Source: a virus
Lineage: Duplodnaviria > Caudoviricetes
Length of the DNA stretch: 50,977 nt
Reading direction: 5' to 3' (one strand)
Virus record (IMG/VR): IMGVR_UViG_3300045733_000207
Location: 1-50,977 of that record
Part shown: positions 2,793 to 39,791 of the stretch, in pieces
Position numbering within the stretch: the stretch's first letter is position 1
Layout: every line of letters begins with the position of its first letter
The notes under the pieces: generated by a model
Database searches by the model: none
Seen by the model: the letters and a program-made list of their open reading frames with translations, nothing else
Told to the model about the DNA's origin: nothing
Program-made: the position numbers and the translations under genes

Positions 2793-3607
2793 TGGCAAAG
2801 GGCGGTAACACATGGGATGATCCTGAAATGGAAGGACAAGAGGAACGTGTGTATCCGGCGAGCCGCAACACCAATGATGTTCCCGTAGGTCAGTCACGTA
2901 ACACCAATGATCAATCTAAAGTCAAACAGACACAGTGGGAATCTACGCCCGGTTATCACGCCATAGGTTCACCGAAAGTTGAGCCACCACCTACACCCAA
3001 ACCGATTGCCAATCCCTTTCCTGACAAGACGCCACAAGAAAAGGAGCAGGAACTTAATGCTAAACTTTCCATGTTGACCAACAAAGTCTTGGAACAGGAA
3101 GCGACACTGGAAGAACTGAATATGAAGGTCGCAATGGGAGTAGGACAGGATTCTACTTGGCCGAGTCATCCGCCTGTTGAGGGTAATCAATTTCGACTGA
3201 CAATCCAGAATACGGGAACGAAATTGTATATCGGTGCTGGCAACATTTGGGCAGGCATCCTGGCGCAATGGTACTGGCCGAGTGGAAGTAATATTGATAA
3301 TTTCGCGGTTCCCGCAGCGGGGCGATACATAGTAGGTATGGTGATAAGAGTTGATCCTGACACTGGCACTTTTGCGGCAGGATACGAACCATATCTTGAT
3401 AAATTTGTGGATGCCGGATCAACACCAGCCATGCAAACTGGTAGTACATGCTTCAAGTCATTGGGATGGGCAGTCAGCAACGGCAGTAAATGGACGAATT
3501 GCGGTCAGATATATTCTGCCACAATAGAAGTGCCGGTTTTGTACTTCCAGCCTCCATGCGATGATCCGCAGTGGTATTGTACATGGCAAAATGTTGATCA
3601 ATTTTGA
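2792..3607 (+). CDS. Hypothetical structural-module protein
   Basis: ATG overlaps the upstream TAA; ~271 aa with a coiled-coil-like middle. Confidence 0.65.
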   Translation: MAKGGNTWDDPEMEGQEERVYPASRNTNDVPVGQSRNTNDQSKVKQTQWESTPGYHAIGSPKVEPPPTPKPIANPFPDKTPQEKEQELNAKLSMLTNKVLEQEATLEELNMKVAMGVGQDSTWPSHPPVEGNQFRLTIQNTGTKLYIGAGNIWAGILAQWYWPSGSNIDNFAVPAAGRYIVGMVIRVDPDTGTFAAGYEPYLDKFVDAGSTPAMQTGSTCFKSLGWAVSNGSKWTNCGQIYSATIEVPVLYFQPPCDDPQWYCTWQNVDQF

Positions 3608-15309: not shown

Positions 15310-16187
15310 GAAAATTACTCACAATAGTTATTGTGTGCCTCATTGCCGCAACAGCGTTTGCGGTGGACGTGTTTCTCGGACGGCAACAGGACATCACATG
15401 GACGGGCGAAGGGACTACGCGGGTCGCACAATGGGGAAGTGTGGCTCCGCCTGCATGGACTGACCCCCTCCCTCAACTGGCTTGGTACGCATTCGAGGCA
15501 ACCAACGCCACGCAGACACTTGACCTATCCGGCAACGGTTACAACGGCGGCAACATGCCGACCGTAGCTACTGGCCCCGCATGGACGACACTGTACACAA
15601 ATGGAAATGGCCGGGTCGAACATGGTTACACGTTCGACGGCGCGGATGACGGGCTGAAAATCGCCGATAACACGCCAATGAGTTTCGTTTCAGGTACGAC
15701 AGACCTGCCGTTGACAATGGCAGCGTGGATATATCCGCACAGTTTCGGGAGCGTTGTTCAGATAATTGTTGGCAAACAGGACAGCGTAGTTTCAGAGTGG
15801 CTCTTCATGACACGTCCAACCAGCAACTTGTCATGGCTTACCCAAAACACGGGAGCTACGGTCACATGGTCGTGCAACACTTACACGAACAGCCTCGCAC
15901 TCAACACATGGTATCACGTCGCTGTCGTTTCGACAGGAAAAACAAATGCGACACTATACATCAACGGCGTTACTCCAACCAATACCTACATCCTCGAATC
16001 AGGCAGTTACGCTTCCCGGAGTGATACTGTTTGCAAGCCGTACATTGGCCGACGCGAAGATACCTCGAACCCCCGTTATTTCGACGGCGTGATTGACGAT
16101 GTGCGCATGTACACTCAGGCGCTAACCTCAGCGCAAATTCTCACGCTCTACCAGAACACAATCACCAACATTTCAACGGGATACTGA
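15306..16187 (+). CDS. LamG/concanavalin A-like domain protein with signal peptide
   Basis: DLSGNGYNG, FDGADD, TMAAWI, NTWYHVAVV, LYING, FDGVIDDVRMY motifs; ATGA overlap with upstream gene. Confidence 0.85.
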   Translation: MRKLLTIVIVCLIAATAFAVDVFLGRQQDITWTGEGTTRVAQWGSVAPPAWTDPLPQLAWYAFEATNATQTLDLSGNGYNGGNMPTVATGPAWTTLYTNGNGRVEHGYTFDGADDGLKIADNTPMSFVSGTTDLPLTMAAWIYPHSFGSVVQIIVGKQDSVVSEWLFMTRPTSNLSWLTQNTGATVTWSCNTYTNSLALNTWYHVAVVSTGKTNATLYINGVTPTNTYILESGSYASRSDTVCKPYIGRREDTSNPRYFDGVIDDVRMYTQALTSAQILTLYQNTITNISTGY

Positions 16188-18306: not shown

Positions 18307-18904
18307 AGAAGGCTCCGAAGAAAACTTGCGGGAACTGCCGGGACATAGCGTGCTCCTGCCGTGGGTGCGAAGATGACGTGCGGTGTCCGGGCGGCAACCT
18401 GAAATGCTGGTTGGAAACTTGCAAAGACTGGACGGGGAAAACGAAATGAGTAGAGATATACCATACGATCCTGAAGCCGTGTGTGAAGTGTGCGGCGCGA
18501 AGGGTGCTTATGACTTCATGGGCGACTTGCTTTGCGGGGAATGTATAACGACAGGCTTGAAAATACAGAGCAAGAACTACATGTTGACCAAGTTGGTGAC
18601 AGCACCGGCGAGCGTATAGGAGTATGGAAAAGACATGAAACGAACCACCAATTTGCTACTAACATGTACCATTTTAGTAGTTGCCGCATTCTGTTCTGGA
18701 TGCTTTATGTTCTACGACAACCCTGACGCACCGGATGTTGTGCCACCGATTGGCAGACCGGATGACTGGCCGGTTTATAAGATAACGAATGTGGTGGAGG
18801 TTGTAGAGTGAAGCGGAAGTACGGTTGGATACCTGACATGAAAAACTCGCGCATTGCCAAACTGTTGCGAAGATTGCTGGCCAAGAAAGCGGAGGTCAAG
18901 AAGC

Positions 18905-19702
18905 ATGAAAAGAGATAAACGAGTGTATGGGTACGTTAGGGATTTGCCTGACAGCCAGGATTTCTGTCTCAGACGCACAACCAAGTCTTCATCTTCATTC
19001 CCAGATGAGTTCAGTTTGACGCCACAACTTCCGCCGATATTCGATCAGGGCAAAATTGGTTCCTGCGTGTTCAACGGCATTGTGCGCCAACACATGTTCT
19101 GTCAGGCTCGGCAACCGGGTGGTATCACGTCCATGCTTTCCCGACTCTACGGTTACTACTGGGTGCGCTGGCCGAATGTGATTGCGGATTCAGGGTGTAT
19201 GCCGAGGGACGCCTTCAAGCTGATTCAGAAGCGCGGATTGCCTGTTGAGACTTTGTGGCCGTACGTAGACGATGGCAAACGTTACATGAAGAAGCCGCCT
19301 ATGTCATGTAGTAGAGACGCCAAGCATCATACCGGTTTGGTCTATGAAACTGTGCCGCAGACTCAGGACGACATAATGGCTTGCCTGTATGGCAATGGCA
19401 AATCACCCTATGGATTCCCTATTGGCTTCGGAGCCATCCTCTATGAATCATTTGAGTCGAGTACGACAGCCAAGACCGGCATTGTCACTCTGCCGAAGAA
19501 GAATGAGTCAGAAGTCGGCGGGCATTATCAGGTCATAGCGGGCTGGAAGCAGATCAAGGGCAAACTCTATTTCGAGATACACAATAGCTGGAGCGTTGCT
19601 TTTGGTGATCAAGGCCGAGACTGGATGCCAGCCGAATATATCCTTGATAAAGATTTGGTGAGTGATTTGAGGAAACTTACTCTTGTTTTGGAGGACGCAT
19701 GA
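18905..19702 (+). CDS. Papain-like cysteine peptidase (family C1)
   Basis: DQGKIGSC (oxyanion Q and catalytic C), GGH and HNSW..FGDQG motifs. Confidence 0.9.
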   Translation: MKRDKRVYGYVRDLPDSQDFCLRRTTKSSSSFPDEFSLTPQLPPIFDQGKIGSCVFNGIVRQHMFCQARQPGGITSMLSRLYGYYWVRWPNVIADSGCMPRDAFKLIQKRGLPVETLWPYVDDGKRYMKKPPMSCSRDAKHHTGLVYETVPQTQDDIMACLYGNGKSPYGFPIGFGAILYESFESSTTAKTGIVTLPKKNESEVGGHYQVIAGWKQIKGKLYFEIHNSWSVAFGDQGRDWMPAEYILDKDLVSDLRKLTLVLEDA

Positions 19703-24664: not shown

Positions 24665-26098
24665 ATGAATGATTACGAGAAATTCTTGGAGCAAAAGTCG
24701 CAGCTTGGTGGGAACTATGGATTTGAACCGACGTTCATGCCCGCGCTTCTGTTTCCTTTTCAGGTCGCATTGACACAATGGGCAACAATGAAGGGACTTT
24801 GCGCTATTTTTGCCGACTGTGGTCTTGGCAAAACTTTCATTCAGTTGACCTGGGCTGAGAATGTCGCACGCAAAACAGACAAGCCCGTTCTCATTCTTGC
24901 GCCTCTTGCCGTATCAGGTCAAACAGTAAAAGAAGCCGACAAGATTGGAGTAGACTGTCAACAGAGTCGCGACGGTAAAGTCATGCCGCGAATCACGGTG
25001 ACTAACTATGAGAAATTACACCTGTTCAATCCTTCTGATTTTGCGGGATGTGTCTGCGATGAATCATCCATCTTGAAACATTTCACTGGCGCAACGCAAA
25101 TGCAAGTCACGCGGTTTATGAATAAGATGCCGTATCGATTGCTTTGCACGGCAACCGCCGCGCCTAACGATTACATTGAACTTGGAACGTCAAGTGAGGC
25201 GTTAGGGGAGTTAAATTATTCAGATATGCTGTCCAGATTTTTCAAACAGCTTGATGATAAGGGACAAAAGAGTGAGACTAAGAGACAAGACTTTGACGAG
25301 AAAGCATCAAAGCATTTTGCAAAGCTATCATTCAGAGTGTCGCAGACTATCGGGCAATACCGATTAAAACATCACGCTATAACGGCTTTCTGGAAATGGG
25401 TTTGTTCATGGTCAAGAGCATGTCGGAAGCCGAGTGATCTGGGATTCGATGATACGGGATTCATTCTACCGGAACTCCAAGAACAGCATCACATCATAAC
25501 ACCGACCACTCCGCCTGAGGGAATGCTTTTCTGTATGCCTGCTTTCGGACTGAGAGAAGAACGGGAAGAGCGACGGCGCACTATGAAAGAGCGTTGTGAG
25601 TTTGTGGCGTCATTGGTGAATCATTCTGAGCCTGCTGTTATTTGGTGCCACATGAATAAAGAGGGTGATCTGCTGGAAAAGATAATTCCTGATGCGCAGC
25701 AAATCAAAGGGTCAACGCCGGATGATATGCGTGAAGAACTTTACGCGGCGTTCAGTTCCGGCAATCAACGAGTGCTGATTATCAAGCCAAAGATAGGAGC
25801 TTGGGGACTCAACTGGCAGCATTGCGCACACGTTGTCACATTTGCCAGTCATTCTTATGAACAGTTCTATCAGTCAATAAGAAGATGCTGGAGGTTCGGG
25901 CAGAAAAGGCCTGTAAGATTAGACGTTGTCGCAACCGAGGGAGAACGCGGAGTGTTTGAAAACATGATGAGGAAGTCTCAGAGAGCGGATGCAATGTTTA
26001 CAGAATTAGTCAAACACATGAACGATGCACAAAAAATAGAGAGAGTCAACAGCTACACAAACAAAATGGAGGTTCCGTCATGGTCAAAGAACAGCTAA
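24665..26098 (+). CDS. SNF2-like superfamily 2 helicase
   Basis: ADCGLGKT (Walker A), CDESS (Walker B), TATAAPN, GLNWQ, QSIRRCWRFGQ. Confidence 0.9.
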   Translation: MNDYEKFLEQKSQLGGNYGFEPTFMPALLFPFQVALTQWATMKGLCAIFADCGLGKTFIQLTWAENVARKTDKPVLILAPLAVSGQTVKEADKIGVDCQQSRDGKVMPRITVTNYEKLHLFNPSDFAGCVCDESSILKHFTGATQMQVTRFMNKMPYRLLCTATAAPNDYIELGTSSEALGELNYSDMLSRFFKQLDDKGQKSETKRQDFDEKASKHFAKLSFRVSQTIGQYRLKHHAITAFWKWVCSWSRACRKPSDLGFDDTGFILPELQEQHHIITPTTPPEGMLFCMPAFGLREEREERRRTMKERCEFVASLVNHSEPAVIWCHMNKEGDLLEKIIPDAQQIKGSTPDDMREELYAAFSSGNQRVLIIKPKIGAWGLNWQHCAHVVTFASHSYEQFYQSIRRCWRFGQKRPVRLDVVATEGERGVFENMMRKSQRADAMFTELVKHMNDAQKIERVNSYTNKMEVPSWSKNS

Positions 26099-27036
26099 TC
26101 ACACCGCGCTATGCGATATACAATGGTGACTGCGTTCAAGCAATGCAAGAGTTGAAAGATGAATCAATCCACCTTTCTCTATACTCACCTCCTTTCGCCG
26201 GGTTATACGTTTATTCGAGCGATGAGCAAGACCTGTCAAACTCCGTCAACTTCACGGAGTTTATGGATCACTACCGTTTCGTGATAAACGAAATCCACCG
26301 GCTCACAATGCCTGGCCGAATATCAGCCGTGCATTGCATGGATATTACCACTGGGAATAGTGGGTTCGATCATCTGAAAGATTTTCCGGGAGATATAATT
26401 AGGCTCCACGAGGAATGCGGCTTTCATTATATCGCACGGTATCACATTTGGAAAGAGCCATTGACGATCCGCAATAGAACAATGATGAAGTCGCTATCGC
26501 ATAAATGTCTTACGTTAGATTCAACAAAATGCAGCGTTGCTAACGCGGATTATCTGTTGATCTTTCGGCGGTCCGGTAACAATCCTGTTCCTGTTGCGCA
26601 TACTCACGGACTGTTGAACTATGCCGGGGAAAAGCCGATACCAAACGAAGTCCTGCCTTATCGTAACTGGCAAGGTAGTCAGCTTGAGAACAGATATTCT
26701 CAATGGGTTTGGAGGCAATACGCAAGTTCATTCTGGGATGATGTTAGGATTGACCGCGTGTTGAAATACAGACCCGCAAAAGATCAAGACGATGAAAAGC
26801 ATTGTCACCCCTTGCAACTTGACGTAATAGAGCGTGCCTGCGTGCTATGGTCAAACCCTAACGACGTTGTGTTGACTCCGTTCATGGGAGTGGGATCAGA
26901 GGTCTATGGGGCAGTACTGAACGGACGCAAGGCCATAGGGGTTGAGTTGAAGTCGTCATACTTCAAACAGGCGGTACGAAATCTAGCCGAGATCAAGCTG
27001 GATGATGAGCATGGCGAGTTCCAATTCAAAACTTGA
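26080..27036 (+). CDS. DNA amino-methyltransferase (N4-C/N6-A, beta class)
   Basis: SPPF catalytic motif near the N-terminus; HP.QL and VLTPFMGVGS SAM-binding motif near the C-terminus. Confidence 0.9.
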   Translation: MVKEQLITPRYAIYNGDCVQAMQELKDESIHLSLYSPPFAGLYVYSSDEQDLSNSVNFTEFMDHYRFVINEIHRLTMPGRISAVHCMDITTGNSGFDHLKDFPGDIIRLHEECGFHYIARYHIWKEPLTIRNRTMMKSLSHKCLTLDSTKCSVANADYLLIFRRSGNNPVPVAHTHGLLNYAGEKPIPNEVLPYRNWQGSQLENRYSQWVWRQYASSFWDDVRIDRVLKYRPAKDQDDEKHCHPLQLDVIERACVLWSNPNDVVLTPFMGVGSEVYGAVLNGRKAIGVELKSSYFKQAVRNLAEIKLDDEHGEFQFKT

Positions 27037-27072
27037 CTCCACCCTGAATAACGAATAAGGTATGTACAAAGT

Positions 27073-27267
27073 ATGAACGAACCAAACAAGGTGAGATTTA
27101 CCTTCACGCTTGATCCGGTTATCGTGGAGAAGGTGAAGGTGCGGGGTAGGGCATTTGGGTTTGCGCTTAGTACGTGGATCAACCACATACTCGCCCGGTC
27201 AGAGGGCTTAGTTGACGATACGAATTGGCCGAGGAAAGATATTGATGCAACAAAGGAAGATGAATGA
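27073..27267 (+). CDS. Ribbon-helix-helix-like regulator
   Basis: VRFTFTLD strand plus two helices; promoter TTGACT-17-TAAGGT at 27033-27061. Confidence 0.5.
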   Translation: MNEPNKVRFTFTLDPVIVEKVKVRGRAFGFALSTWINHILARSEGLVDDTNWPRKDIDATKEDE

Positions 27268-27497
27268 ACAACGATCCCGCCACAATCCCTGACCGTGCCG
27301 CCGCGATATTGTTCCCCATGCTTGGCATGAATGTCTATTCACGGGTTGATACACTGGCTGAACGGCTGGCGAAGTTGCTTGGACCCGGTCACACTATCCA
27401 TACCGTGATAGAAGGATTCAAGGAATCACTGGATGACCCTGAAAACACATGCAGAGAACTGGCTATACTGATTGCTAAAGCGGAGGGTGAGATATGA
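27264..27497 (+). CDS. Hypothetical protein
   Basis: ATGA coupling at both ends. Confidence 0.55.
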   Translation: MNNDPATIPDRAAAILFPMLGMNVYSRVDTLAERLAKLLGPGHTIHTVIEGFKESLDDPENTCRELAILIAKAEGEI

Positions 27498-27670
27498 ACA
27501 GAATCAAGCGACAGAAGAATACTGCAAAGACCTGCAAGAATTGCTCGGCATGGTTCGGTGATGATGAGACTTGCTGGTATATCTCCTGCAAGCGCAACCC
27601 TTGCCAATATGACCATTGGAGATCAAAGAAGTTTGCAACGAGTTCCAACAATGCCGTGAGGGTCAAATGA
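27494..27670 (+). CDS. 58-aa Cys-rich protein (absent from the ORF track)
   Basis: Own translation MNRIKRQKNTAKTCKNC...SSNNAVRVK; GGAGG RBS; stop overlaps ATG 27667. Confidence 0.55.
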   Translation: MNRIKRQKNTAKTCKNCSAWFGDDETCWYISCKRNPCQYDHWRSKKFATSSNNAVRVK

Positions 27671-27709
27671 CCGCTGCGGGCATTTGTACTCTCGACGGGC
27701 TGGTTCGCT
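27643..27709 (-). mobile_element. attC-like site Z
   Basis: TTCCAAC aatgc CGT GAGGGT CAAATG ... CATTTG [T] ACTCTC [G] ACG ggctg GTTCGCT. Confidence 0.85.
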
Positions 27710-28392
27710 GTCTTGATCTCTTCTGCTGCGCCGGGGGGGCAGGAGAGGGCTACCGCCGCGCCGGGTTCGACGTGACCGGCGTGGACATCCGGCCTCAACC
27801 GCAGAACCCGCACCGATTCATTCAGGGGGACGCGCTCGCGTTCCTGCCCGCCCACGGCCACGAGTTCGACTTCATCCACGCAAGCCCGCCATGCCAAGGC
27901 TACAGCACGCTTGCCGCGATGCACCCAGGCAAGACGTGGCCGAAACTGATTGACCAAGTGCGGTCGTTGCTCAAGGCGACCGGACGGCCTTACGTGATTG
28001 AGAACGTCGAAACCGCACCGCTCAACCGTGAATCTGACCTGTTCGGAAACCACGGCGTCTTGCTGTGTGGGAGCATGTTTGGCCTCGGTGTGGAGAGCGG
28101 ATTTCTGCGGAGGCATCGAATCTTCGAGACGAGCTTTCCAGTCCCGCAGCCGGAATGCCGCCACGTCGGCAAGGCGGTGGGAGTTTACGGCCACGGCGGG
28201 CACACTGGAAAGCACCGGATGCTGTACCGCGAAGAGGCGGCGAAGGCGATGGGGATTGACTGGATGAACAGGGACAACATGTGCCAGGCGATACCGCCGG
28301 CGTACACCGAATGGCTTGGGCGCTACGCGATGGCCCATACAGCGAACGCCCGAAATCAGGGGCTTGCGCACCAAGGAGAACGCCATGACTGA
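27667..28392 (+). CDS. Short DNA cytosine-C5 methyltransferase (cassette cargo)
   Basis: LDLFCCAGG (motif I), SPPCQ (IV), IENV (VI); GC-richer than its flanks. Confidence 0.85.
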   Translation: MTAAGICTLDGLVRCLDLFCCAGGAGEGYRRAGFDVTGVDIRPQPQNPHRFIQGDALAFLPAHGHEFDFIHASPPCQGYSTLAAMHPGKTWPKLIDQVRSLLKATGRPYVIENVETAPLNRESDLFGNHGVLLCGSMFGLGVESGFLRRHRIFETSFPVPQPECRHVGKAVGVYGHGGHTGKHRMLYREEAAKAMGIDWMNRDNMCQAIPPAYTEWLGRYAMAHTANARNQGLAHQGERHD

Positions 28393-28438
28393 GACAAACG
28401 CGAGCGGGGCGCAAGTACCCTGCATTTCATTGTTGGCC
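28341..28438 (-). mobile_element. attC-like site A; loop holds AGGAG RBS and ATG 28385
   Basis: AGCGAAC gcccga AAT CAGGGG CTTGCGC ... GCGCAAG [T] ACCCTG [C] ATT tcatt GTTGGCC. Confidence 0.85.
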
Positions 28439-28657
28439 GATCACCTCGACTTGATGGTTGATGAGTTCAAGAGGATCAAGGCGCTGACAAGGGATACCGA
28501 AATTCAAGGGCTTTGTGACCGGGCAATCTCAAACACGAAACAGCGCGTTCCGGTGATTGTTCAACGGAACGAATGGGAGAGGAAGTTCTGGGAACTGGAC
28601 AAGCAATGGTCGGAGCGATACGCCGAATTGAAGAAGGCCACCGGCAGGAGGAAGTGA
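28385..28657 (+). CDS. Hypothetical protein (cassette cargo)
   Basis: RBS and ATG inside the site A loop. Confidence 0.7.
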   Translation: MTETNASGAQVPCISLLADHLDLMVDEFKRIKALTRDTEIQGLCDRAISNTKQRVPVIVQRNEWERKFWELDKQWSERYAELKKATGRRK

Positions 28658-28763
28658 AATGACGCCCAAAGAAATTGAACAAGCAGAGCATGACGAGTTG
28701 GATAAGCACGGTGTGTTGAAGTTTGCCGAGCTTTCTCCTGTACGGTCGGTGCCATTGTTGGCT
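28636..28763 (-). mobile_element. Degenerate attC-like site B
   Basis: Intact right arm CCTG[T]ACGGTC[G]GTG ccatt GTTGGCT; left arm shortened, starting GGCCACC instead of GGCCAAC. Confidence 0.6.
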
Positions 28764-28967
28764 GAGGCAGTTCTTATTGACATCTTCAAGACAACTGTTC
28801 AGGCAATGCGAGATAGGCATATTCATCTGGCAGATCATTGTCTTGATTGCAGGCGTGAGTTTCGATGGGAATTCATATGCCCTGAATGCGAGGGCATTGA
28901 AATTGACAAAAGAAATCAGCAAGCCAACGCTCCTCTTGAGCGTTTGCGAGAAAAGGAGAATGGATGA
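28659..28967 (+). CDS. Hypothetical protein with CxxC...CxxC (cassette cargo)
   Basis: GGAGG RBS; CLDC...CPEC. Confidence 0.7.
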   Translation: MTPKEIEQAEHDELDKHGVLKFAELSPVRSVPLLAEAVLIDIFKTTVQAMRDRHIHLADHCLDCRREFRWEFICPECEGIEIDKRNQQANAPLERLREKENG

Positions 28968-29012
28968 AAAAGAAGCGGCTGTCGAGCAATACGCTCCGAG
29001 AGGTTGTTCGGC
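28922..29012 (-). mobile_element. attC-like site C; loop holds AGGAG and the ATGA overlap
   Basis: AGCCAAC gctcct CTT GAGCGT TTGC ... GCAA [T] ACGCTC [C] GAG aggtt GTTCGGC. Confidence 0.85.
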
Positions 29013-29197
29013 TATGCTATCTCTGCAAAGCACCTGCAACGCGACTTCTGGTGCGGTGGGGTTATGATCCAGACATTACTACACGGAAACCAATTTGCTC
29101 GAAATGTCCTTCAGGTGGAGTTGACAGTACGTGTGGTTACTCAACTGAGCCATTACCGAACGCGGAGCATGAGCCTCCGCGAGAAAGGAAAGTATGA
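28964..29197 (+). CDS. Small zinc-finger-like protein (cassette cargo)
   Basis: CYLC...CSKC; ATGA coupling at both ends. Confidence 0.65.
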   Translation: MKKKRLSSNTLREVVRLCYLCKAPATRLLVRWGYDPDITTRKPICSKCPSGGVDSTCGYSTEPLPNAEHEPPRERKV

Positions 29198-29253
29198 AAC
29201 GATTACGAATTGCCGCCGCGCTTCTCGCGGCAGGCTCCGGGCTTTTGTTGGCC
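29155..29253 (-). mobile_element. attC-like site D
   Basis: ACCGAAC gcggag CAT GAGCCT CCGCGAGAA ... TTCTCGCGG [C] AGGCTC [C] GGG ctttt GTTGGCC. Confidence 0.8.
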
Positions 29254-29484
29254 GGAAGTATCTACGCAGATACCAACGTCTGGTCTAACGACAGCACCAA
29301 CATATGCTCGATCAATACATGGAGGGTATCTACTGATCTTACCATTGGCCCCGTCACTATCTGTACGACTAATGGGGTAGTCAAGATCAAGGAGGGCGTA
29401 GCACTTGATGAAGCGAGTAGAGCTTTTTGGAAGGCAGTGTCAGATGCGTATCCCGCGATGTTTGAAACGGTGAAAAAGAAGTGA
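29194..29484 (+). CDS. Secreted hypothetical protein (cassette cargo)
   Basis: Signal peptide MKRLRIAAALLAAGSGLLLAGSIYA, mostly encoded by the attC loop and arm. Confidence 0.7.
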   Translation: MKRLRIAAALLAAGSGLLLAGSIYADTNVWSNDSTNICSINTWRVSTDLTIGPVTICTTNGVVKIKEGVALDEASRAFWKAVSDAYPAMFETVKKK

Positions 29485-29485
29485 A

Positions 29486-29544
29486 GGCCAACGCTGACAT
29501 GAGGCGCGGCGGGTGAGCCGTCGCCCTCCATGTGTTGGTTGGGC
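29486..29544 (-). mobile_element. attC-like site E (59 bp)
   Basis: GGCCAAC gctga CAT GAGG..GGCGG gtgag CCGTC..CCTC [C] ATG tgttg GTTGGGC. Confidence 0.8.
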
Positions 29545-29550
29545 AATGTT

Positions 29551-29715
29551 ATGGACGTAGATAAGAAATGGTTCAAGGATCAATTGTTCGTGATTGTGTA
29601 CCACACGGCGCACGAAAGCGAGTTGACACTGAGGGAGATGGTTCAGGCCCTTCACGAAGTGGCTGAACACGTCATGTTTCTGGAGGAAAAGAAGAATGAC
29701 AACGATGGAAGGTAA
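29551..29715 (+). CDS. Small hypothetical protein (cassette cargo)
   Basis: ATG 7 nt after site E. Confidence 0.5.
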   Translation: MDVDKKWFKDQLFVIVYHTAHESELTLREMVQALHEVAEHVMFLEEKKNDNDGR

Positions 29716-29881
29716 ATGTGCGGCACGTCTGCATTGGTTGCATGACTGTTCAATCGGAACATTGGATGTAGACGGCTATGAGTTTGTAACGGGGCAGGGC
29801 TTCACAATCGAAGCTGCTGCGCTCGCCGCCGAAGCTGACATAAAAGAGGCGTGTCAATCATGGGACTATGTAGTCGTCTAA
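29696..29881 (+). CDS. Small hypothetical protein (cassette cargo)
   Basis: GGAGG RBS; TAA stop lies inside the GTCTAAC box. Confidence 0.6.
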   Translation: MTTMEGKCAARLHWLHDCSIGTLDVDGYEFVTGQGFTIEAAALAAEADIKEACQSWDYVVV

Positions 29882-29934
29882 CGCCGCAACTCAGCCGCGA
29901 GCTTAGGCGAGTAGGCTGGTGTTGCTGGTTGGAA
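29876..29934 (-). mobile_element. attC-like site F (59 bp)
   Basis: GTCTAAC gccgca ACT CAGCCG ... [T] AGGCTG [G] TGT tgctg GTTGGAA. Confidence 0.8.
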
Positions 29935-29940
29935 CTGAAT

Positions 29941-30099
29941 ATGAAAACAACTTTAGATATGCTTAAAATGAGATTGTTCCTTTTGGAGAAATTGCGGGAT
30001 CAGATGGATGAAGATATTTTGCATGTATGGTTCGCATGGCAATGGGCGAAATATAGACATAGTTCCAACACTCAAGCTGAGGCTGAGAGAAGAGCGTAG
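29941..30099 (+). CDS. Small hypothetical protein (cassette cargo, AT-rich)
   Basis: Bounded by GTTGGAACT and AGTTCCAAC. Confidence 0.55.
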   Translation: MKTTLDMLKMRLFLLEKLRDQMDEDILHVWFAWQWAKYRHSSNTQAEAERRA

Positions 30100-30133
30100 C
30101 GATGAACGATAGATCTCCAGCGCCTTGTTCGGC
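30063..30133 (-). mobile_element. attC-like site G (weaker inner stem)
   Basis: TTCCAAC actcaa GCT GAG ... CTC [C] AGC gcctt GTTCGGC. Confidence 0.65.
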
Positions 30134-30596
30134 GGCTCCGGTCAAATGGAAAGGACGCGCTGTCTTTAGCTCGGCCCACGTCGAATGGGGAACTGACCCG
30201 GCACTAAAAGCGGCGCTCGACAAAGAGTTTAGGTTCACGCTCGATCCATGTACACCTGGACAAATATGGGATGGCAGGGCGATGTCGTGGGTCGGACATC
30301 GCGTCTTCTGTAATCCTCCATACGGTAAAGGCATGGACAAGTGGTTCGTCAAAGGGCCGGAAGCAGAACTCGCCGTGTTCCTTGTGCCTGCAAGAACCGA
30401 TGTGGGGTGGTTTCACGACTACGCGCTAAAAGCTGCCGAGATCAGATTCTTTCGTGGGCGTCTTAAATTTGTGGAGGGTCACGCTATCAAACCAGACAAA
30501 TTCTTTGGGACTGCGCCGTTCCCCTCGATGCTCGTAATTTTCAGGCGCGAGGATTCGCCGAACAGTGCAATATGCGTCAAGACGGTTTGCCATTAG
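30102..30596 (+). CDS. Phage N6-adenine DNA methyltransferase (Dam-like; cassette cargo)
   Basis: EW.T.P, FTLDPC, FCNPPY, LVPARTD, RGRLKF and APFPS motifs. Confidence 0.88.
   Translation: MNDRSPAPCSAAPVKWKGRAVFSSAHVEWGTDPALKAALDKEFRFTLDPCTPGQIWDGRAMSWVGHRVFCNPPYGKGMDKWFVKGPEAELAVFLVPARTDVGWFHDYALKAAEIRFFRGRLKFVEGHAIKPDKFFGTAPFPSMLVIFRREDSPNSAICVKTVCH
30557..30579 (-). mobile_element. attI-like terminal site 2
   Basis: GCCGAAC-agtgc-AATATGCGTCA with no hairpin partner; matches 21245-21267. Confidence 0.6.
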
Positions 30597-30635
30597 AACG
30601 AAACAAGCTGTCCGAGCAGCGGCAGCGAATAAAGG

Positions 30636-30775
30636 TTGACAGTGCGCGGGGATTTGGTAGGATGTGCGACATGCTAGAGTTAAATCAGAATCAGTTTGAA
30701 TCCCGTTCAAGTGGCGCAAGCCATTTCTTCCCGCAAGGGGAAACTCTAGCAGGCTTGGGCGGGATTCTTTTTTTT
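30636..30775 (+). ncRNA. Promoter plus multi-stem leader RNA/terminator with antisense box, upstream of the replication genes
   Basis: TTGACA...TGGTAGGAT; stem 30698-30711/30754-30767 followed by T8; two GCAA tetraloop hairpins; 30742-30751 is complementary to 30672-30681. Confidence 0.65.
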
Positions 30776-30795
30776 ACAGGGAAAAGAGGATTGCC

Positions 30796-31449
30796 ATGTA
30801 TGGTAAATTATTTGTTTCGATGTACGAGGGGTCAATGGTTGGAGCTGGTGCCAATGTTTTTGCGTTATGGGGTTATTGCATAGCCAAAGCCGATCCAGAG
30901 GATCACACTGTTATTTTGAATCCCGAACTTTTAGCAAAGATCATTGGTACTACTGCCGAGGAAATATCAAAGTCATTGACATTTTTGACATCGCCTGATC
31001 CTAACTCAAAAAATGGAGATCACGGCGGTTGCAGGTTGTTACATCAATCAGGATTCCAGTATTTCCTTGTGAGTCACGAACACTATCGGAACATCAAAAA
31101 CAGCGAAGACGTAAGGGCTTACAACAGAGAAATGAAACGTAGAGAACGTGAAAGGAAGGCGTTGAAGGTAAATGTCAATGACAGTCATGGACAAGTCAAT
31201 GACTCTGCCTCTGCTTCTGTATCTGATATTGGGGATTGTCAAGGGGGACATACGCTCGCCGAGTGTCTAGCTGCTTCTGAGGGAATTGGAATGAAGCCTG
31301 ACGATGTTAAGAAGTTCTTCGACTACTACGACGGGGTTAAAGGCTGGGGTACAATCAAAGGCAGTCTCAAGTCAGCGTTGTCATACTGGAAATCCAACAG
31401 CCATAATTTCGACAAGCCTAAATCACGAACCCGCCCAGTGAACATATGA
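30796..31449 (+). CDS. Putative replication initiator
   Basis: N-terminal HTH-like region, charged linker, C-terminal FFDYY..KGW...W domain; coupled to the primase-helicase. Confidence 0.6.
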   Translation: MYGKLFVSMYEGSMVGAGANVFALWGYCIAKADPEDHTVILNPELLAKIIGTTAEEISKSLTFLTSPDPNSKNGDHGGCRLLHQSGFQYFLVSHEHYRNIKNSEDVRAYNREMKRRERERKALKVNVNDSHGQVNDSASASVSDIGDCQGGHTLAECLAASEGIGMKPDDVKKFFDYYDGVKGWGTIKGSLKSALSYWKSNSHNFDKPKSRTRPVNI

Positions 31450-33059
31450 ACATGCAAGATTTTCTTTCCCGGTTGCAAAAGGTTAGCAAGACCTCAAAGG
31501 GCTGGCAAGCGTGTTGTCCGTCCCATGCTGATACAACGCCGTCCCTTTCTGTTGACGAAGGAGAAAAAGGAATTGTTCTTACGTGTCGCGCTGGTTGTGA
31601 TACTGAGAAGGTCGTTGCCGCAATGGGTTTGAAAATGTCAGACCTATTTCGGGACTCATCAAAGGAAGTCATAATCACGCCTATCAAGCGGCAGGTCGTT
31701 GAAAGTTACGTGTACACCGACGCGCTTGGCAAGCCACTTTTCAGGACATGCCGAATTGAGCCAGGCAAGGACGGTCGCAAGAAAGACTTTGCGCAACAGG
31801 GAATTGGGGCAGACGGAAAATATCAGAACAACATGGAAGGCATGATCCGCGTCTTATACAATCTTCCGGCAGTATTGAAGTCTGAACAGGTCGTAATCTG
31901 TGAGGGGGAGCGCAAAGCAAATTGGATCAACGAAACAGGATACGTAGCAACGTGCAATGTTGGAGGCGCGGGGAAGTGGCTTGACGCTTGGACTGATTGC
32001 CTTGCCGGGAAATCTATTGTTATTTGTGCCGACAATGACGAACCCGGTCAGAACCATGCACGCCTTTTACACAAGGCTCTATCAGGACACGTCAAAGAAA
32101 TTCTTCATATCCGAGTACCGAAACCACACAATGACATTGTTGACTATTTCCGCAGTGTAGGCATGGACAAGGACACACGTACAAAGGCGTTCATTGATTT
32201 GCTCATGGCCGGAATGCCTGTCCCGCAAAATCTTGATGTGCCTATCCGCTCAATGGCGCAACTAGAAGAAGAATACATCGCATTCATTGCTAAATCTTCC
32301 AATACAGTTTTACTTCTTGGCAACTGGTTGCCAGCGTATCGAACCTTGCGGGGAATTGTACCCGGAGAGATGGTTACGATCATTTCAGATACCGGCGTTG
32401 GCAAAACAATGGTGCTGCATAATATAGCGTTATCAGCATCGCCGCTCTATGTCCTGTTGTTTGAATTGGAGTTGCCGAGCAGTTTAACCTTTGAACGGCT
32501 TGCCGCACTCACAACGGAATGTAGTGGATATGACATCGAGTCATTCTACAAGTCAACCAAACCCGTCCACTGGCAACGAAACGAACAGGTCAAGCGGATA
32601 TTCACCTGTTCAGAATCAAATCTATCAGTTGAGAAAATCAGGGAGATATTGCACAAGGCTGAATTGGCAATGGGCGTTAAACCCGCTGTTGTGATGATTG
32701 ATTACATCCAGTTGATGCAAGGCAGGGGTAGTCGCTACGAGAAAACATCAGACGTTGCAGAACAGTTAAAGGTGCTCGCCAAAGAGGAAAACGTAATATT
32801 GATCCTTGCATCTCAAGTATCCCGCGATGGCTCAGAGCAAATAACATTGCACTCGTCTAAAGATAGCGGGGCAATAGAAAATTCATCAGGTTGCGTTCTC
32901 GGTGCATGGCGCGACGAACATGAACGCGACAGCATTTATATCAAGCTTCTGAAGTTCACCAAAGGCCGCGCCGGAGAATTTGCAGCCGTAAAATGCACCA
33001 TTGACCGCTCATTGAGAATTAAGGAGGCAATGCCCTTTGACAAAGATGACCCGCGCTGA
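31446..33059 (+). CDS. Bifunctional primase-helicase (Zn finger + TOPRIM + DnaB-like SF4)
   Basis: CCPSHAD..PSLS...CRAGC; ICEGE...ADNDEPG; DTGVGKT; IDYIQL; ASQVSR; KDSGAIE. Confidence 0.92.
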   Translation: MNMQDFLSRLQKVSKTSKGWQACCPSHADTTPSLSVDEGEKGIVLTCRAGCDTEKVVAAMGLKMSDLFRDSSKEVIITPIKRQVVESYVYTDALGKPLFRTCRIEPGKDGRKKDFAQQGIGADGKYQNNMEGMIRVLYNLPAVLKSEQVVICEGERKANWINETGYVATCNVGGAGKWLDAWTDCLAGKSIVICADNDEPGQNHARLLHKALSGHVKEILHIRVPKPHNDIVDYFRSVGMDKDTRTKAFIDLLMAGMPVPQNLDVPIRSMAQLEEEYIAFIAKSSNTVLLLGNWLPAYRTLRGIVPGEMVTIISDTGVGKTMVLHNIALSASPLYVLLFELELPSSLTFERLAALTTECSGYDIESFYKSTKPVHWQRNEQVKRIFTCSESNLSVEKIREILHKAELAMGVKPAVVMIDYIQLMQGRGSRYEKTSDVAEQLKVLAKEENVILILASQVSRDGSEQITLHSSKDSGAIENSSGCVLGAWRDEHERDSIYIKLLKFTKGRAGEFAAVKCTIDRSLRIKEAMPFDKDDPR

Positions 33060-39327: not shown

Positions 39328-39791
39328 AATTAACGGAGGTTTAGTTATGAAAAACGTCAAGATAATGTCGCAATGGGATATTCGGCGAATTGTGAGGGAT
39401 GAGATAGACAAAAGTATTGCCCATATAACAGAGAAAACAATTCAGAGAATTTGTAATGATTATCTTTATCGAACGGAGAGGGGTTTTCTGGATCATCTGG
39501 CTAGACAATTTGGTTTGAAGGTTGCGGTTCCTGTGACTCAAAACATAACGGATGCTACCCCGATTCGGGATTTGCGTTTTACACGACGCACTCAGAGTTG
39601 TTTGGAACTGGCAGATATAAAAACCATTGCAGAATTGACGAATAAAACTACGTCTGATTTACTAAGATGTAGGGGACTTGGCAAAAAAACATTCTTTGAA
39701 GTTCGTAATCGGTTAAAAAGTTGTGGGCGGTCATTGAAAGATGAATGATGGTTAGGAAGATAGAGACTGACGAGCGGGGGTATTATGATGC
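39274..39791 (+). repeat. 38-bp direct repeats (39274-39311 and 39754-39791) flanking the alphaCTD gene
   Basis: AGGAAGATAGAGACTGACGAGCGGGGGTATTATGATGC occurs twice, 480 bp apart. Confidence 0.9.
39347..39748 (+). CDS. Protein with an RNA polymerase alpha subunit C-terminal domain
   Basis: PIRDLRFTRRTQSCL..ADIKTIAEL......LL...GLGKKT..EV...L...G.SL matches the RpoA CTD pattern. Confidence 0.85.
   Translation: MKNVKIMSQWDIRRIVRDEIDKSIAHITEKTIQRICNDYLYRTERGFLDHLARQFGLKVAVPVTQNITDATPIRDLRFTRRTQSCLELADIKTIAELTNKTTSDLLRCRGLGKKTFFEVRNRLKSCGRSLKDE

Follow-up and report, generated by a model that had tools for sequence, protein, structure and literature searches.

The region from 27.6 to 30.6 kb raises the question of how a phage genome with no integrase of its own might acquire a row of small genes that each begin at a folded element resembling an integron attC site. 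We analyzed the whole stretch of 50,977 nucleotides, referred to here as the window. In this uncultured river phage small genes stand in a row, each preceded by a folded attC-like site, which suggests that accessory genes are exchanged as cassettes in some phages. We consider the region probably to be an array that lacks an integrase and consists of about eight gene cassettes, with attC-type recombination sites, defined by structure, between them. This architecture has no earlier description; integrase-less attC clusters in phages were known before, as excerpts of Qi 2023 (PMC9892861) report. Coordinates are given in Table 1.

Table 1. Sites, cassettes and adjoining backbone gene of the array (extra-base positions in parentheses).
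Feature	Coordinates	Strand	Description
Backbone N6/N4 DNA methyltransferase	26080..27036	+	Adjoins helicase gene 24665-26098
Site 1	27643..27709	-	attC-like hairpin, top strand on -; passes geometry test (16, 23); holds stop of gene 27494-27670 and ATG (27667) of C5 methyltransferase
Cassette 1	27649..28346	+	From C of AAC to next AA; C5 cytosine DNA methyltransferase, gene 27667-28392
Site 2	28341..28438	-	attC-like hairpin; passes geometry test (16, 23); loop with AAGGAG, ATG at 28385 and methyltransferase stop codon
Cassette 2	28347..28641	+	90-aa ORF 28385-28657, function unassigned
Site 3	28636..28763	-	Degenerate; core ACC instead of AAC; no convincing stem
Cassette 3	28642..28927	+	102-aa ORF 28659-28967; Cys pairs (by eye)
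Site 4	28922..29012	-	attC-like hairpin; passes geometry test (17, 23); loop with RBS and ATGA overlap at 28964
Cassette 4	28928..29160	+	77-aa ORF 28964-29197
Site 5	29155..29253	-	attC-like hairpin; passes geometry test (17, 23); fold z -2.2; loop with RBS and ATGA overlap at 29194
Cassette 5	29161..29491	+	96-aa ORF 29194-29484; N-terminus signal-peptide-like (by eye); own stop codon 8 nt ahead of next AAC
Site 6	29486..29544	-	59-bp intergenic attC-like hairpin; best match to real attC sites; fold z -3.0
Cassette 6	29492..29881	+	Small ORFs 29530-29715 and 29696-29881, overlapping each other; the latter ends in a TAA that shares bases with next AAC (GTC TAA C)
Site 7	29876..29934	-	59-bp intergenic hairpin, weaker than site 6
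Cassette 7	29882..30068	+	52-aa ORF 29941-30099
Site 8	30063..30133	-	Degenerate as hairpin
Cassette 8	30069..30562	+	Dam-type N6-adenine DNA methyltransferase, gene 30102-30596
Terminal half-site TCGCCGAAC	30555..30563	+	No hairpin behind; junction of last cassette and phage backbone

DNA methyltransferases are the cargo of two of the eight cassettes, which would point to an anti-restriction role for the cargo. The cassette 1 enzyme matched Pfam DNA_methylase (4.8e-05) and PHROG 363 (2.3e-37), with homologues aligning from residues ~13-16 to 218-226 of 241; that of cassette 8 matched Pfam Dam (1.4e-11) and PHROG 111 (7.2e-31), with homologues aligning to residues ~20-152 of 164. The cassette 2 ORF matched no family in Pfam or PHROG. 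Its homologues, in two other viral contigs, start at residue 14-15, directly after the GTT box, and no attC-like site was present at their start in those contigs. For the cassette 3 ORF, a search for relatives that included Pfam and PHROG found none. The helicase and the backbone N6/N4 methyltransferase were conserved in 80 of 80 related loci, whereas the cassette genes were not.

Structure of the sites

Each site was compared arm against arm, with positions numbered from the outer end of the GTT box. From the 5' side, a 7-nt box that ends in AAC is followed by 2-4 unpaired bases (5-6 are usual) and then by a bulged stem and a loop; the return arm has single extra bases at 16/17 and 23 and leads into a 7-nt box that starts with GTT. 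This layout was clear in sites 1, 2, 4 and 5, where both extra bases lie on the same arm with 5-6 bp of stem between them; it was partial in sites 6 and 7 and absent from sites 3 and 8. Loops of 33-38 nt and enclosed start codons occur here. On the + strand the distal extra base was T in three of these four geometry-positive sites, and the first was G in one and C in the other three; site 1 has G at position 16 and T at 23. Sites 4 and 5 have in common AACGC, a stem and then GCGAGAAA, with stems of different sequence. Real class 1 attC sites, analyzed in the same way, had extra bases at 16 and 23, and those of Vibrio and Shewanella at 16, 20 and 24, in agreement with the positions given in excerpts of Nivina 2016 (PMC5027507).

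The strict geometry test is specific. It gave four matches in the 51-kb genome, all within the array and on the - strand, none on the + strand, and none in 20 shuffles of the whole window. When the sites were folded as single-stranded DNA, only sites 1 (z -3.3), 6 and 5 stood out on the + strand; folds were modest for sites 2 (z -1.7), 4 (z -1.3) and 7 (z -0.9), and those of sites 3 (z +0.05) and 8 (z -0.13) were no better than shuffled sequence. Site 7 had a stem score of 6.5 with one extra base, and its left box GTCTAAC fits RYYYAAC exactly; sites 3 and 8 had stem scores of 4 each. Thus, of eight hairpins originally predicted with a shared attC-like layout, six (sites 1, 2 and 4-7) are real and two are degenerate, although the boxes of all eight lie where they had been placed. 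Two sites are, as described, exactly 59 bp long.

The window was also searched with a covariance model (R1) built from 15 real attC sites only. The three best matches were sites 6 (15.8 bits, E 0.15, the top match of the whole window), 2 (14.6 bits, E 0.28) and 7 (9.2 bits, E 5.4), all on the - strand and with exactly the boundaries first assigned by eye. These scores are weak, yet they fall in the range of true class 1 attC sites outside the training set (26.7, 21.2, 15.6, 13.5 and below 12 bits). With default filters, site 2 was the only non-integron match in 952 kb. No match of at least 13.5 bits was obtained in 814 kb of related phage DNA, and with filters off the model found only one geometry-positive site of the relatives (11.7 bits).

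Complementarity between neighboring sites

The right box of each site had been reported to pair with the left box of the next site. All eight pairs were recovered with the same counts (9/9, 6/7, 7/7, 6/7, 7/7, 5/7, 9/9 and 8/8). At the ends of cassette 1, GTTCGCTGT at 27703 pairs with ACAGCGAAC at 28339, and at those of cassette 7, GTTGGAACT at 29928 pairs with AGTTCCAAC at 30061 (9/9 each). Both links of site 3 hold (6/7 and 7/7) in spite of its poor stem, as do those of site 8 (9/9 and 8/8). The left box of site 1, also AGTTCCAAC, has no complementary GTT box upstream, and site 1 is therefore the end of the array. At the other end, the terminal half-site pairs 8/8 with GTTCGGCG at 30127; a search for a stem-forming GTT partner found none, and in integron terms this half-site would be the attI-side junction.

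A chain statistic for this offset complementarity reached 20 over five links in the array region. Across 300 dinucleotide shuffles its mean was 6.3 (sd 2.6, maximum 16) and none attained the observed value, the other 3-kb windows of the genome gave at most 13-14, and GTT was the best of the 64 possible cores (next best 14). Among 499 windows from related phages, three did reach at least 20, including one that lies within a helicase gene, so the chain statistic alone is not specific. A real integron array likewise showed offset complementarity. The pattern was replicated in related phage contigs: pairing with the downstream AAC box extended at least 4 nt beyond the core for 10 of 13 geometry-positive phage sites, compared to 15% of 1406 control GTTs, and at least 5 nt for 8 of 13, compared to 4.9%. 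In two relatives (L027 and L107) the core is altered on both sides, so that GATCTGCGAA pairs with TTCGCAGATC.

Polarity and organization of the cassettes

The extra bases lie on the GTT-side arm, which is the 3' arm of the coding strand, and the + strand is therefore the "bottom," recombinogenic strand in integron terms. This polarity is opposite to the one first assigned. By integron rules, crossover would then take place between A and C of the left-box AAC on the + strand; by the same rules, the GTT-side extra bases and the - strand matches of R1 speak against the GTT core of the right box as the exchange point.

A cassette thus runs from the last C of one AAC through the hairpin, the GTT box and the gene body to the next nnnnAA, and the gene that it carries has its RBS and ATG in the hairpin loop. 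An intergenic location of the sites was considered and rejected, as six of eight contain the stop of the preceding gene and the RBS/ATG of the following one. The gene typically crosses the next AA|C junction, always in the phase that reads AAC as a codon, and terminates within the next site after a further 15-48 nt; its stop there usually overlaps the next start as ATGA. All 12 read-through cassettes had the AAC in frame as a codon (six from the window and six from relatives; 15 cassettes examined), against a background of 297 of 878 AAC in that phase (34%). Given this phase rule and the ATGA overlaps, any cassette order would keep reading frames and translational coupling intact.

Variation among related phages

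Comparison of related genomes revealed different neighbors joined at the AAC core. In a related site family of 24 unique copies from viral and metagenome contigs, conservation rises from ~0.4 to 1.0 exactly at the triplet, which is preceded by 17 different 4-mers; all 21 aligned sites have T as the distal extra base. In three pairs the site is shared and the downstream DNA is at least 98% identical, but the DNA upstream is unrelated; in one of these pairs identity starts exactly at the C of AA|C. No pair had the reverse arrangement, with upstream DNA in common and downstream DNA unrelated. Each site therefore travels with its downstream gene, not with its upstream gene. This 20-mer family has many different flanking genes, with up to three copies on one contig, and its conserved repeat encodes an N-terminal leader peptide that the downstream genes have in common. 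The family was not found in bacterial genomes: of eight matches to its 20-mer, the seven examined were an unrelated gene.

Across all relatives, the starts of homology blocks were not enriched for AAC (44/377, 12.8% at random), whereas the ends were (75/346, 12.3% at random), with block counts that are not independent. A search for recombination joints in the sequencing runs holding this DNA (kept as contigs) found none. A 151-nt contig from the source sample matches 27647-27707 only and diverges just after GTTCG, which could represent a break at the right box. Sites of this kind are absent from Synechococcus phage S-H1, the closest relative in culture.

Possible mechanism and alternative explanations

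The reported absence of a tyrosine recombinase was borne out, and the genome encodes no serine recombinase or Y1 transposase either. An enzyme acting on the sites must therefore come from elsewhere, most likely, we infer, from a host integron integrase. Excerpts of Qi 2023 (PMC9892861) report that IntI1 recombined five of six attC sites from virulent phages. In the proposed mechanism, the cassette would close into a circle in which its GTT box pairs with the far-end nnnnAAC as the R box; complementarity of these two boxes is what such a circle predicts. The original interpretation of the locus thus gains support in its attC-like geometry, offset complementarity, lack of a recombinase gene and the junctions of related phages at the AAC core, but not in its polarity.

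It is possible, though we think it unlikely, that the sites are hot spots for general or illegitimate recombination, through phage annealing proteins or replication slippage at hairpins, with no site-specific integrase. T4-type phages offer a parallel, as their repeated promoter/stem-loop elements shuffle small genes. The missing recombinase gene fits this explanation. So does a 443-nt indel that distinguishes the nearly identical phages L056 and L057: it lies inside a cassette at a 7-nt microhomology and not at the cores. Members of the related site family are ~90% alike and could support homologous exchange; the eight window sites, however, have almost no sequence in common beyond their geometry, which makes homologous exchange among them unlikely. 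General recombination also leaves a junction fixed at one triplet to be explained, and the paired cassette-end boxes, including a core changed on both sides, point instead to a circular or folded intermediate.

Less probable still is that the hairpins are mRNA elements that expose or mask the RBS and AUG of the following gene, whether to couple translation or to serve as the operator of a phage-encoded RNA-binding repressor; protein would contact the bulged bases, and the AAC/GUU flanks and cassette-like pattern would be secondary. The hairpins do lie on the sense strand and, in six of eight sites, enclose a stop codon, RBS and ATG; in six of eight the fold of the + strand equals or betters that of the - strand; and 10 of 11 geometry matches in relatives are on one strand, following gene orientation. 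Such a role would not account for a GTT box that pairs with an AAC box several hundred bases downstream, the constant in-frame reading of AAC as a codon, homologous sites behind 17 or more different upstream neighbors with a break exactly at the triplet, or extra bases at the two integron positions, 16 and 23, the latter with T. A role in mRNA and a role in recombination are not exclusive. Chance, from composition and the reader's selection, is very improbable: CpG is more frequent in the array region than elsewhere in the genome, the choice of sites was free and other phages have the three high-scoring windows, but the shuffles (0/300 and 0/20), a model trained on real attC sites only that picks the same sites with the same ends, and replication in independent contigs refute it.

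Comparison with known systems

Clusters of attC sites lacking an integrase are reportedly termed CALINs. The cassette array that we favor matches integron attC sites and CALINs in its AAC and GTT boxes and its unpaired spacer, in the placement of extra bases at ~16 and 23 (T at the latter), in site length (59-128 bp), in keeping a single polarity from end to end and in the offset complementarity of its boxes. It differs in that its sites face the opposite way relative to the genes, stand at the 5' end of their own gene and contain its RBS and start codon, have a shorter spacer and score weakly against the model of real attC sites, and in that junctions are phase-locked within codons and genes overlap as ATGA.

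The array also resembles the T4-type elements in that a lytic phage carries small accessory genes in a hypervariable region, with a repeated structured element associated with each. Those promoter/stem-loop elements lie between small early genes and are thought to act via homologous recombination; they are conserved in sequence, whereas the window sites share only geometry and the AAC/GTT cores.

Virulent phages with integrase-less attC clusters, several with DNA methyltransferases, are described in excerpts of Qi et al. 2023 (PMC9892861), and the window array resembles CALINs, including these, in having no integrase nearby and DNA methyltransferase cargo. In the published phage cluster of TJE1, three sites are on the gene strand; the window array is opposite to it, and to classical arrays. 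The 20-mer family resembles sedentary chromosomal integron arrays, such as that of Vibrio carried by phage MK672802 (our positive control), in its near-identical sites with many different flanking genes. It differs from them in having no intI and no attI with promoter, in a repeat that encodes an N-terminal leader and in that only viral and metagenome contigs yielded copies. Finally, nearly any sequence, genes included, can be made to contain attC-type hairpins, according to excerpts of Nivina et al. 2020 (PMC7439510); those coding-sequence attC sites were synthetic and designed, whereas the window sites would be natural ones that overlap coding sequence.

Setting and gene content of the array

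The record is a complete 50,977-bp virus genome with direct terminal repeats, and it derives from a riverine metagenome assembly. The array sits in a plus-strand operon and is flanked on both sides by conserved blocks, whose genes were identified by Pfam and PHROG scans. The array region holds two methyltransferase genes, together with seven small ORFs of no known family. Adjacent genes mostly overlap as ATGA, and only 29485-29529 and 29882-29940 are intergenic. The region is compositionally distinct, as unbiased k-mer enrichment yields mainly CpG-rich words. An Rfam search of positions 27000-31000 (E up to 5) gave no match, and no part of the window yielded a tRNA. Over positions 27712-28310, the C5 methyltransferase DNA is 72-75% identical to methyltransferase genes found in phages of Mycobacterium and Gordonia, and the remainder of the array region has no DNA match within the phage collection, which suggests an actinobacteriophage-like source for the cargo of this cassette.

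Features of the array and of other parts of the genome
Feature	Position	Strand	Remarks
ORF of 2230 aa	5625-12317		
Laminin_G_3 lectin-like domain	15228-16187		
Papain-like cysteine protease domain	18854-19702		
SNF2-type helicase	24665-26098		Upstream of array
N6/N4 DNA methyltransferase	26080-27036		Upstream of array
Site 1	27643-27709		
C5 cytosine methyltransferase	27667-28392	+	Within array
Site 2	28341-28438		
Site 3	28636-28763		
Site 4	28922-29012		
Site 5	29155-29253		
Site 6	29486-29544		
Site 7	29876-29934		
Site 8	30063-30133		
Dam-type methyltransferase	30102-30596	+	Within array
Terminal box (half-site)	30555-30563		
Promoter-like feature, full span	30636-30775		
Promoter-like site	30636-30663		TTGACA, 16 nt, TG, TAGGAT
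Long inverted repeat	30698-30711/30754-30767		Followed by an eight-T run
Primase/DnaB helicase	31446-33059		Downstream of array
ORF with RNA polymerase alpha C-terminal domain	39347-39748		Pfam RNA_pol_A_CTD, 3.5e-14

Several other features of the genome were recorded. The promoter-like site is strong, and with the inverted repeat on its 3' side it could represent a gene for a small RNA or else the cassette operon's terminator. An ORF that matches the bacterial RNA polymerase alpha subunit is unusual in a phage. The 2230-aa ORF, which had no match among the families searched, the protease and the Laminin_G_3 domain probably serve virion or lysis functions.

Boxes, folding and site geometry

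Every box of the original prediction was confirmed, as was every count of matches between the right (GTT) box of one site and the left (AAC) box of the next, here called offset complementarity. Seven of the eight left boxes, and also the terminal one, contain AAC; site 3 has ACC instead. All eight right boxes contain GTT. The fit to RYYYAAC/GTTRRRY is partial: there is one exact match to each half (GTCTAAC in site 7 and GTTGGGC in site 6), and the remaining boxes, as read from their sequences, mostly match three of the four degenerate positions. On the minus strand, AACAA begins five of the eight sites and GCGTT ends six of the nine boxes; among aligned real attC sites AACAA is invariant and GCGTT nearly so. 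Site lengths of 59-128 bp lie within the attC range of 57-141 bp. The proposal that all eight sites form hairpins held in part when single-stranded folding was compared with that of shuffled sequences. The signal was strong for sites 1, 6 and 5 (plus-strand z of -3.3, -3.0 and -2.2), modest for sites 2, 4 and 7, and absent for sites 3 and 8.

We assessed geometry by aligning the sequence 3' of each AAC to the reverse complement of the sequence 5' of the matching GTT. Sites 1, 2, 4 and 5 share a common design of 2-4 unpaired bases, a stem of 4-7 bp, an extra base, a stem of 5-6 bp, a second extra base and a further stem. Their extra bases all lie on the GTT-side arm, at positions 16 or 17 and 23 (numbered from the outermost base of the GTT box), and the distal one is T on the plus strand in three of these four sites (1, 2 and 4). 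Sites 6 and 7 have one clear extra base, and sites 3 and 8 none.

As positive controls we used a Vibrio array (MK672802), class 1 arrays on an E. coli P1 phage (MH445380) and a Shewanella array (MZ568829), all from phages listed in Qi et al. 2023. The alignment script recovered the attC sites of all three, with extra bases at positions 16 and 23 in class 1 sites and at 16, 20 and 24 in Vibrio and Shewanella sites. These positions agree with the published description of attC sites, in which a 6-bp stem separates the extrahelical base at 16 from that at 23/24, and the latter, distal base is a conserved T of the bottom strand (Nivina 2016, PMC5027507). Unpaired spacers, which are 2-4 nt in the window sites, measured 3 nt in Vibrio and Shewanella and 5-6 nt in class 1 sites by the same alignment, against an attC criterion of 5-6 nt. 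Offset complementarity was also seen in the Vibrio array, a real integron array, where GTTATAT, for instance, is followed by ATATAAC.

In every control array the gene strand carried the extra bases on its AAC-side arm, whereas in the window they are on the GTT-side arm. The window sites thus share the attC geometry, with an orientation opposite to that of the genes, and the coding plus strand of the window array corresponds to the bottom strand of an integron. With six to eight co-oriented sites packed into 2.5 kb and no integron integrase nearby, the arrangement is that of a CALIN.

Controls for chance similarity

Offset complementarity was evaluated with a chain statistic that used dynamic programming to connect any GTT box to any AAC box 100-700 nt downstream, and that box to any GTT box 50-135 nt further on. 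As all GTT/AAC links were allowed, the search mimics the freedom of box choice in the original prediction. The array region scored 20 over five links, a value reached by none of 300 dinucleotide shuffles (mean 6.3, sd 2.6, maximum 16), and the offset complementarity thus withstood the shuffled control. Scores elsewhere in the genome rose to 13-14, and GTT scored best among all 64 cores. Real DNA has a heavier tail, as 3 of 499 windows of related phages scored at least 20, one of them inside a helicase gene. For this reason the chain statistic was dropped as a sufficient test by itself and is regarded as supportive, not decisive.

A geometry detector was assembled from literature criteria: a stem score of at least 8, single-base bulges at 15-17 and 19-25 on one arm, no bulge on the opposite arm, and spacers of at least 2 nt. 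Across the whole window it returned four matches, all on the minus strand (sites 1, 2, 4 and 5), with none on the plus strand; 20 dinucleotide-shuffled versions of the window also gave none. There was likewise no match in cyanophage S-H1, which by its helicase (57% identity) is the nearest relative in culture. Sensitivity on real arrays was 10 of 15 hairpins for Vibrio, 4 of 6 for class 1 and 3 of 10 for Shewanella.

We also built a covariance model with 12 base pairs from 15 of 20 real attC sites (6 Vibrio, 7 Shewanella, 2 class 1), the MAFFT alignment being unable to join short class 1 sites with long ones; no site from the phage array was included. With filters off and both strands searched, the top three matches in the window were site 6 (15.8 bits, E = 0.15), site 2 (14.6 bits, E = 0.28) and site 7 (9.2 bits, E = 5.4), individually non-significant scores. 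All three were on the minus strand, with ends identical to the predicted boundaries, and the other five sites were unmatched. Class 1 sites outside the training set scored 26.7, 21.2, 15.6 and 13.5 bits, with one below 12, and three published sites of Tetrasphaera phage TJE1 scored 20.6-24.1 bits on the gene strand. In 814 kb of related phage DNA the model, run with default filters, found no match of at least 13.5 bits, and it recovered only one of the sites in these relatives (in contig L010, 11.7 bits). The model is a weak detector of this site class.

The cassette unit and its reading frame

[quoted passage not shown] Under integron rules with this strand assignment, crossover would occur between A and C of the left-box AAC, and a cassette would extend from that C through the hairpin, the GTT box and the gene body to the next nnnnAA. 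Gene starts fall within or just 3' of their own site, and the RBS and ATG lie in the loop of six of the eight sites.

Reading phase was examined in 15 cassettes, eight from the window and seven from related phages. In 12 of these the ORF crosses the next junction, each time with the AAC as an in-frame codon and with its stop codon 15-48 nt past the junction, inside the next site. The ORFs of the other three end just before or on the AAC. Among AAC triplets in the genes of this genome, 297 of 878 (34%) are in this phase, and 12 of 12 would arise by chance with a probability of about 2e-6. Given this phase rule, any cassette order would preserve reading frames and ATGA coupling.

Homology covers residues ~13-226 of 241 in the C5 methyltransferase and ~20-152 of 164 in the Dam enzyme, placing the domains between the boxes, and the homology of the 90-aa protein to two other phage proteins begins directly after the GTT box. 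The hairpin therefore encodes a leader foreign to the ancestral protein. A crossover at AA|C of the left box fits the gene starts, the phase rule and the domain limits. The classical layout, a promoterless ORF on the top strand followed by its attC, does not describe this array, as the ORFs are on the bottom strand and, unlike in a classical cassette, each site lies at the 5' end of its own gene with the start codon within it. Neither is the array a complete integron: there is no intI, and the terminal box has no recognisable attI features.

Sites in related phages

A helicase search retrieved 80 related IMG/VR loci at 52-75% identity. The helicase and N6 methyltransferase are common to these loci and the cassette genes are absent; when the cassette proteins of the window were compared by tblastn with 87 loci, matches were limited to helicase, N6 methyltransferase and primase, along with a single C5 methyltransferase. 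The geometry detector made 11 matches in the 814 kb of these relatives, 10 of them on the minus strand, the same polarity as in the window, and the matches clustered in contigs L010 (three), L020 (two), L016, L027 and L056/L057. Successive sites in L010 are linked 7/7 (GTTCTAC to GTAGAAC, GTTATGC to GCATAAC), and those in L020 by GTTAGAATG to CATTCTAAC. The downstream AAC box pairs for at least 4 nt past the core in 10 of 13 geometry-positive sites, compared to 15% of 1406 control GTTs, and for at least 5 nt in 8 of 13, compared to 4.9% of controls. A cassette in contigs L027 and L107 has its core altered at both ends (GATCTGCGAA ... TTCGCAGATC), which argues that the pairing of cassette ends is itself selected.

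Other comparisons among relatives were negative or weak. TTGTTSG and CSAACGC were not enriched 3' of the N6 methyltransferase in 58 related loci, and the variable stretch after this gene in the L016/L048 cluster had no attC-like sites. Within viral contigs, the 102-aa ORF had no relatives, the 96-aa ORF had partial weak matches, and the 90-aa ORF had two relatives, neither with sites. An empty-site test asked whether the original C-terminus of gene 27494-27670 is the tail now located 3' of the terminal box; no relatives of this gene were found in viral contigs, and a large protein collection returned only the gene itself.

A widespread site family

A 20-mer from L020 was present in 5 viral contigs and 40 metagenome stretches, with at most three copies per contig. 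Conservation among 24 unique copies climbs from ~0.4 to 1.0 precisely at the triplet (AAC in 16, ATC in 4, ACC in 4), which is preceded by 17 distinct 4-mers. Three of 210 copy pairs share at least 98% downstream identity and 97-100% left-arm identity next to unrelated upstream DNA, and none shows the reverse. The C of AT|C and AA|C is the exact point from which contigs L109 and L129 are identical, and identity between L147 and L148 starts at AAC and runs for at least 802 nt. A comparison of related phages, which the original prediction had proposed, thus reveals different neighbours joined at the AAC core. Together, the data from the relatives and from this family support a cassette composed of a site and the gene downstream of it, with the left box as the junction to the neighbouring cassette. 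All 21 aligned family members have T as the plus-strand bulged base at position 23; the alignment is too conserved for covariation analysis (one compensatory pair in 22).

The 20-mer gave eight matches in bacterial genomes, seven of them in an unrelated gene. Occurrences in Aeromicrobium and several other bacterial genomes (L150, L156, L157 and others) were rejected as sequence coincidence in an unrelated coding context.

Positions 1220-1335 of L020 and the 23 other unique copies, from viral and metagenome contigs, encode the same N-terminal leader, beginning MSTTPD, which precedes at least nine different downstream sequences. The conserved site family in this way supplies a common start and leader peptide to many genes.

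Searches for a recombinase and for rearrangement

The reported lack of a tyrosine recombinase was borne out, as TIGR02249 and PF00589 had no match in the complete genome. Neither a serine recombinase nor a Y1 transposase was found among its genes, and no candidate recombinase emerged when 40 further ORFs were scanned against Pfam and PHROG. A host integrase may play a role. No link to a bacterial integron was found.

In two runs with DNA of this phage, both in contig form and one probably from the source sample, no excision products, order variants or joints were seen. A 151-nt contig from the source sample matches positions 27647-27707 only and then diverges. Across all relatives, AAC was not enriched at the starts of homology blocks and was enriched 1.8-fold at their ends, counts that are not independent. 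A 443-nt indel distinguishes the 99% identical phages L056 and L057; it lies within a cassette, at a microhomology of 7 nt, and both boxes are retained.

At positions 10455-10500 of L057, a GTT box and its complementary AAC box are ~22 nt apart, an emptied cassette; in L056 (7394-7877) a 467-nt ORF lies between the same two boxes. The first 104 nt of L056 match L057 around 2842-3229 at many offsets spaced by 27 nt, and L057 therefore carries a tandem array with a 27-nt period.

Interpretation and comparison with known systems

The pattern is real and extends beyond what was first claimed. Judged by structure, four to six sites conform to the definition of attC, and the array would work like an attC cassette array. 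More tentatively, and with rather more doubt than confidence, we suggest that freshwater phages may hold a phage-adapted lineage of integron-like cassettes, in which the recombination site also acts as a portable translation-initiation module, junctions are phase-locked at AA|C, and a host integrase or an unrecognised recombinase acts on them. The RBS, ATG and leader peptide would then sit within the hairpin, and any shuffle would give intact, translationally coupled genes.

Integrons are known as bacterial devices. If the tentative reading is true, such phages could be both users and a source of integron-type cassettes. In the lytic-type phage described here, the operon itself follows a cassette logic: sites overlap gene starts and junctions keep frame. 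Many uncultured freshwater phages share this design. If active, the sites would explain in concrete terms how small early phage genes, including anti-restriction methyltransferases, undergo the turnover that has long been noted; they would also offer a route for cassette exchange between phages and bacterial integrons, and they would be a natural case of structure-defined recombination sites coexisting with coding and translation signals.

Phage-borne attC clusters were reported only recently, and those reported are small, with two to four sites of the classical type. Literature searches for earlier descriptions found only Qi et al. 2023 to be directly related. That study describes 17 integrase-less attC clusters in 10,705 phage genomes, with five methyltransferase cassettes, and recombination by IntI1 of five of six sites from virulent phages (PMC9892861). 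Integrase-less phage attC clusters are therefore already published, and the window array is of the same kind. In the literature searched, we found no description of the polarity, 5' site, embedded start, phase-locking, cassette number or recurrence seen here, and the list of 17 CALINs in Qi et al. 2023 may include similar cases. Compared to the clusters reported there, the window array has the opposite polarity, a site at the 5' end of the gene with an embedded gene start, phase-locked junctions, about eight cassettes, and recurrence in many uncultured freshwater phages.
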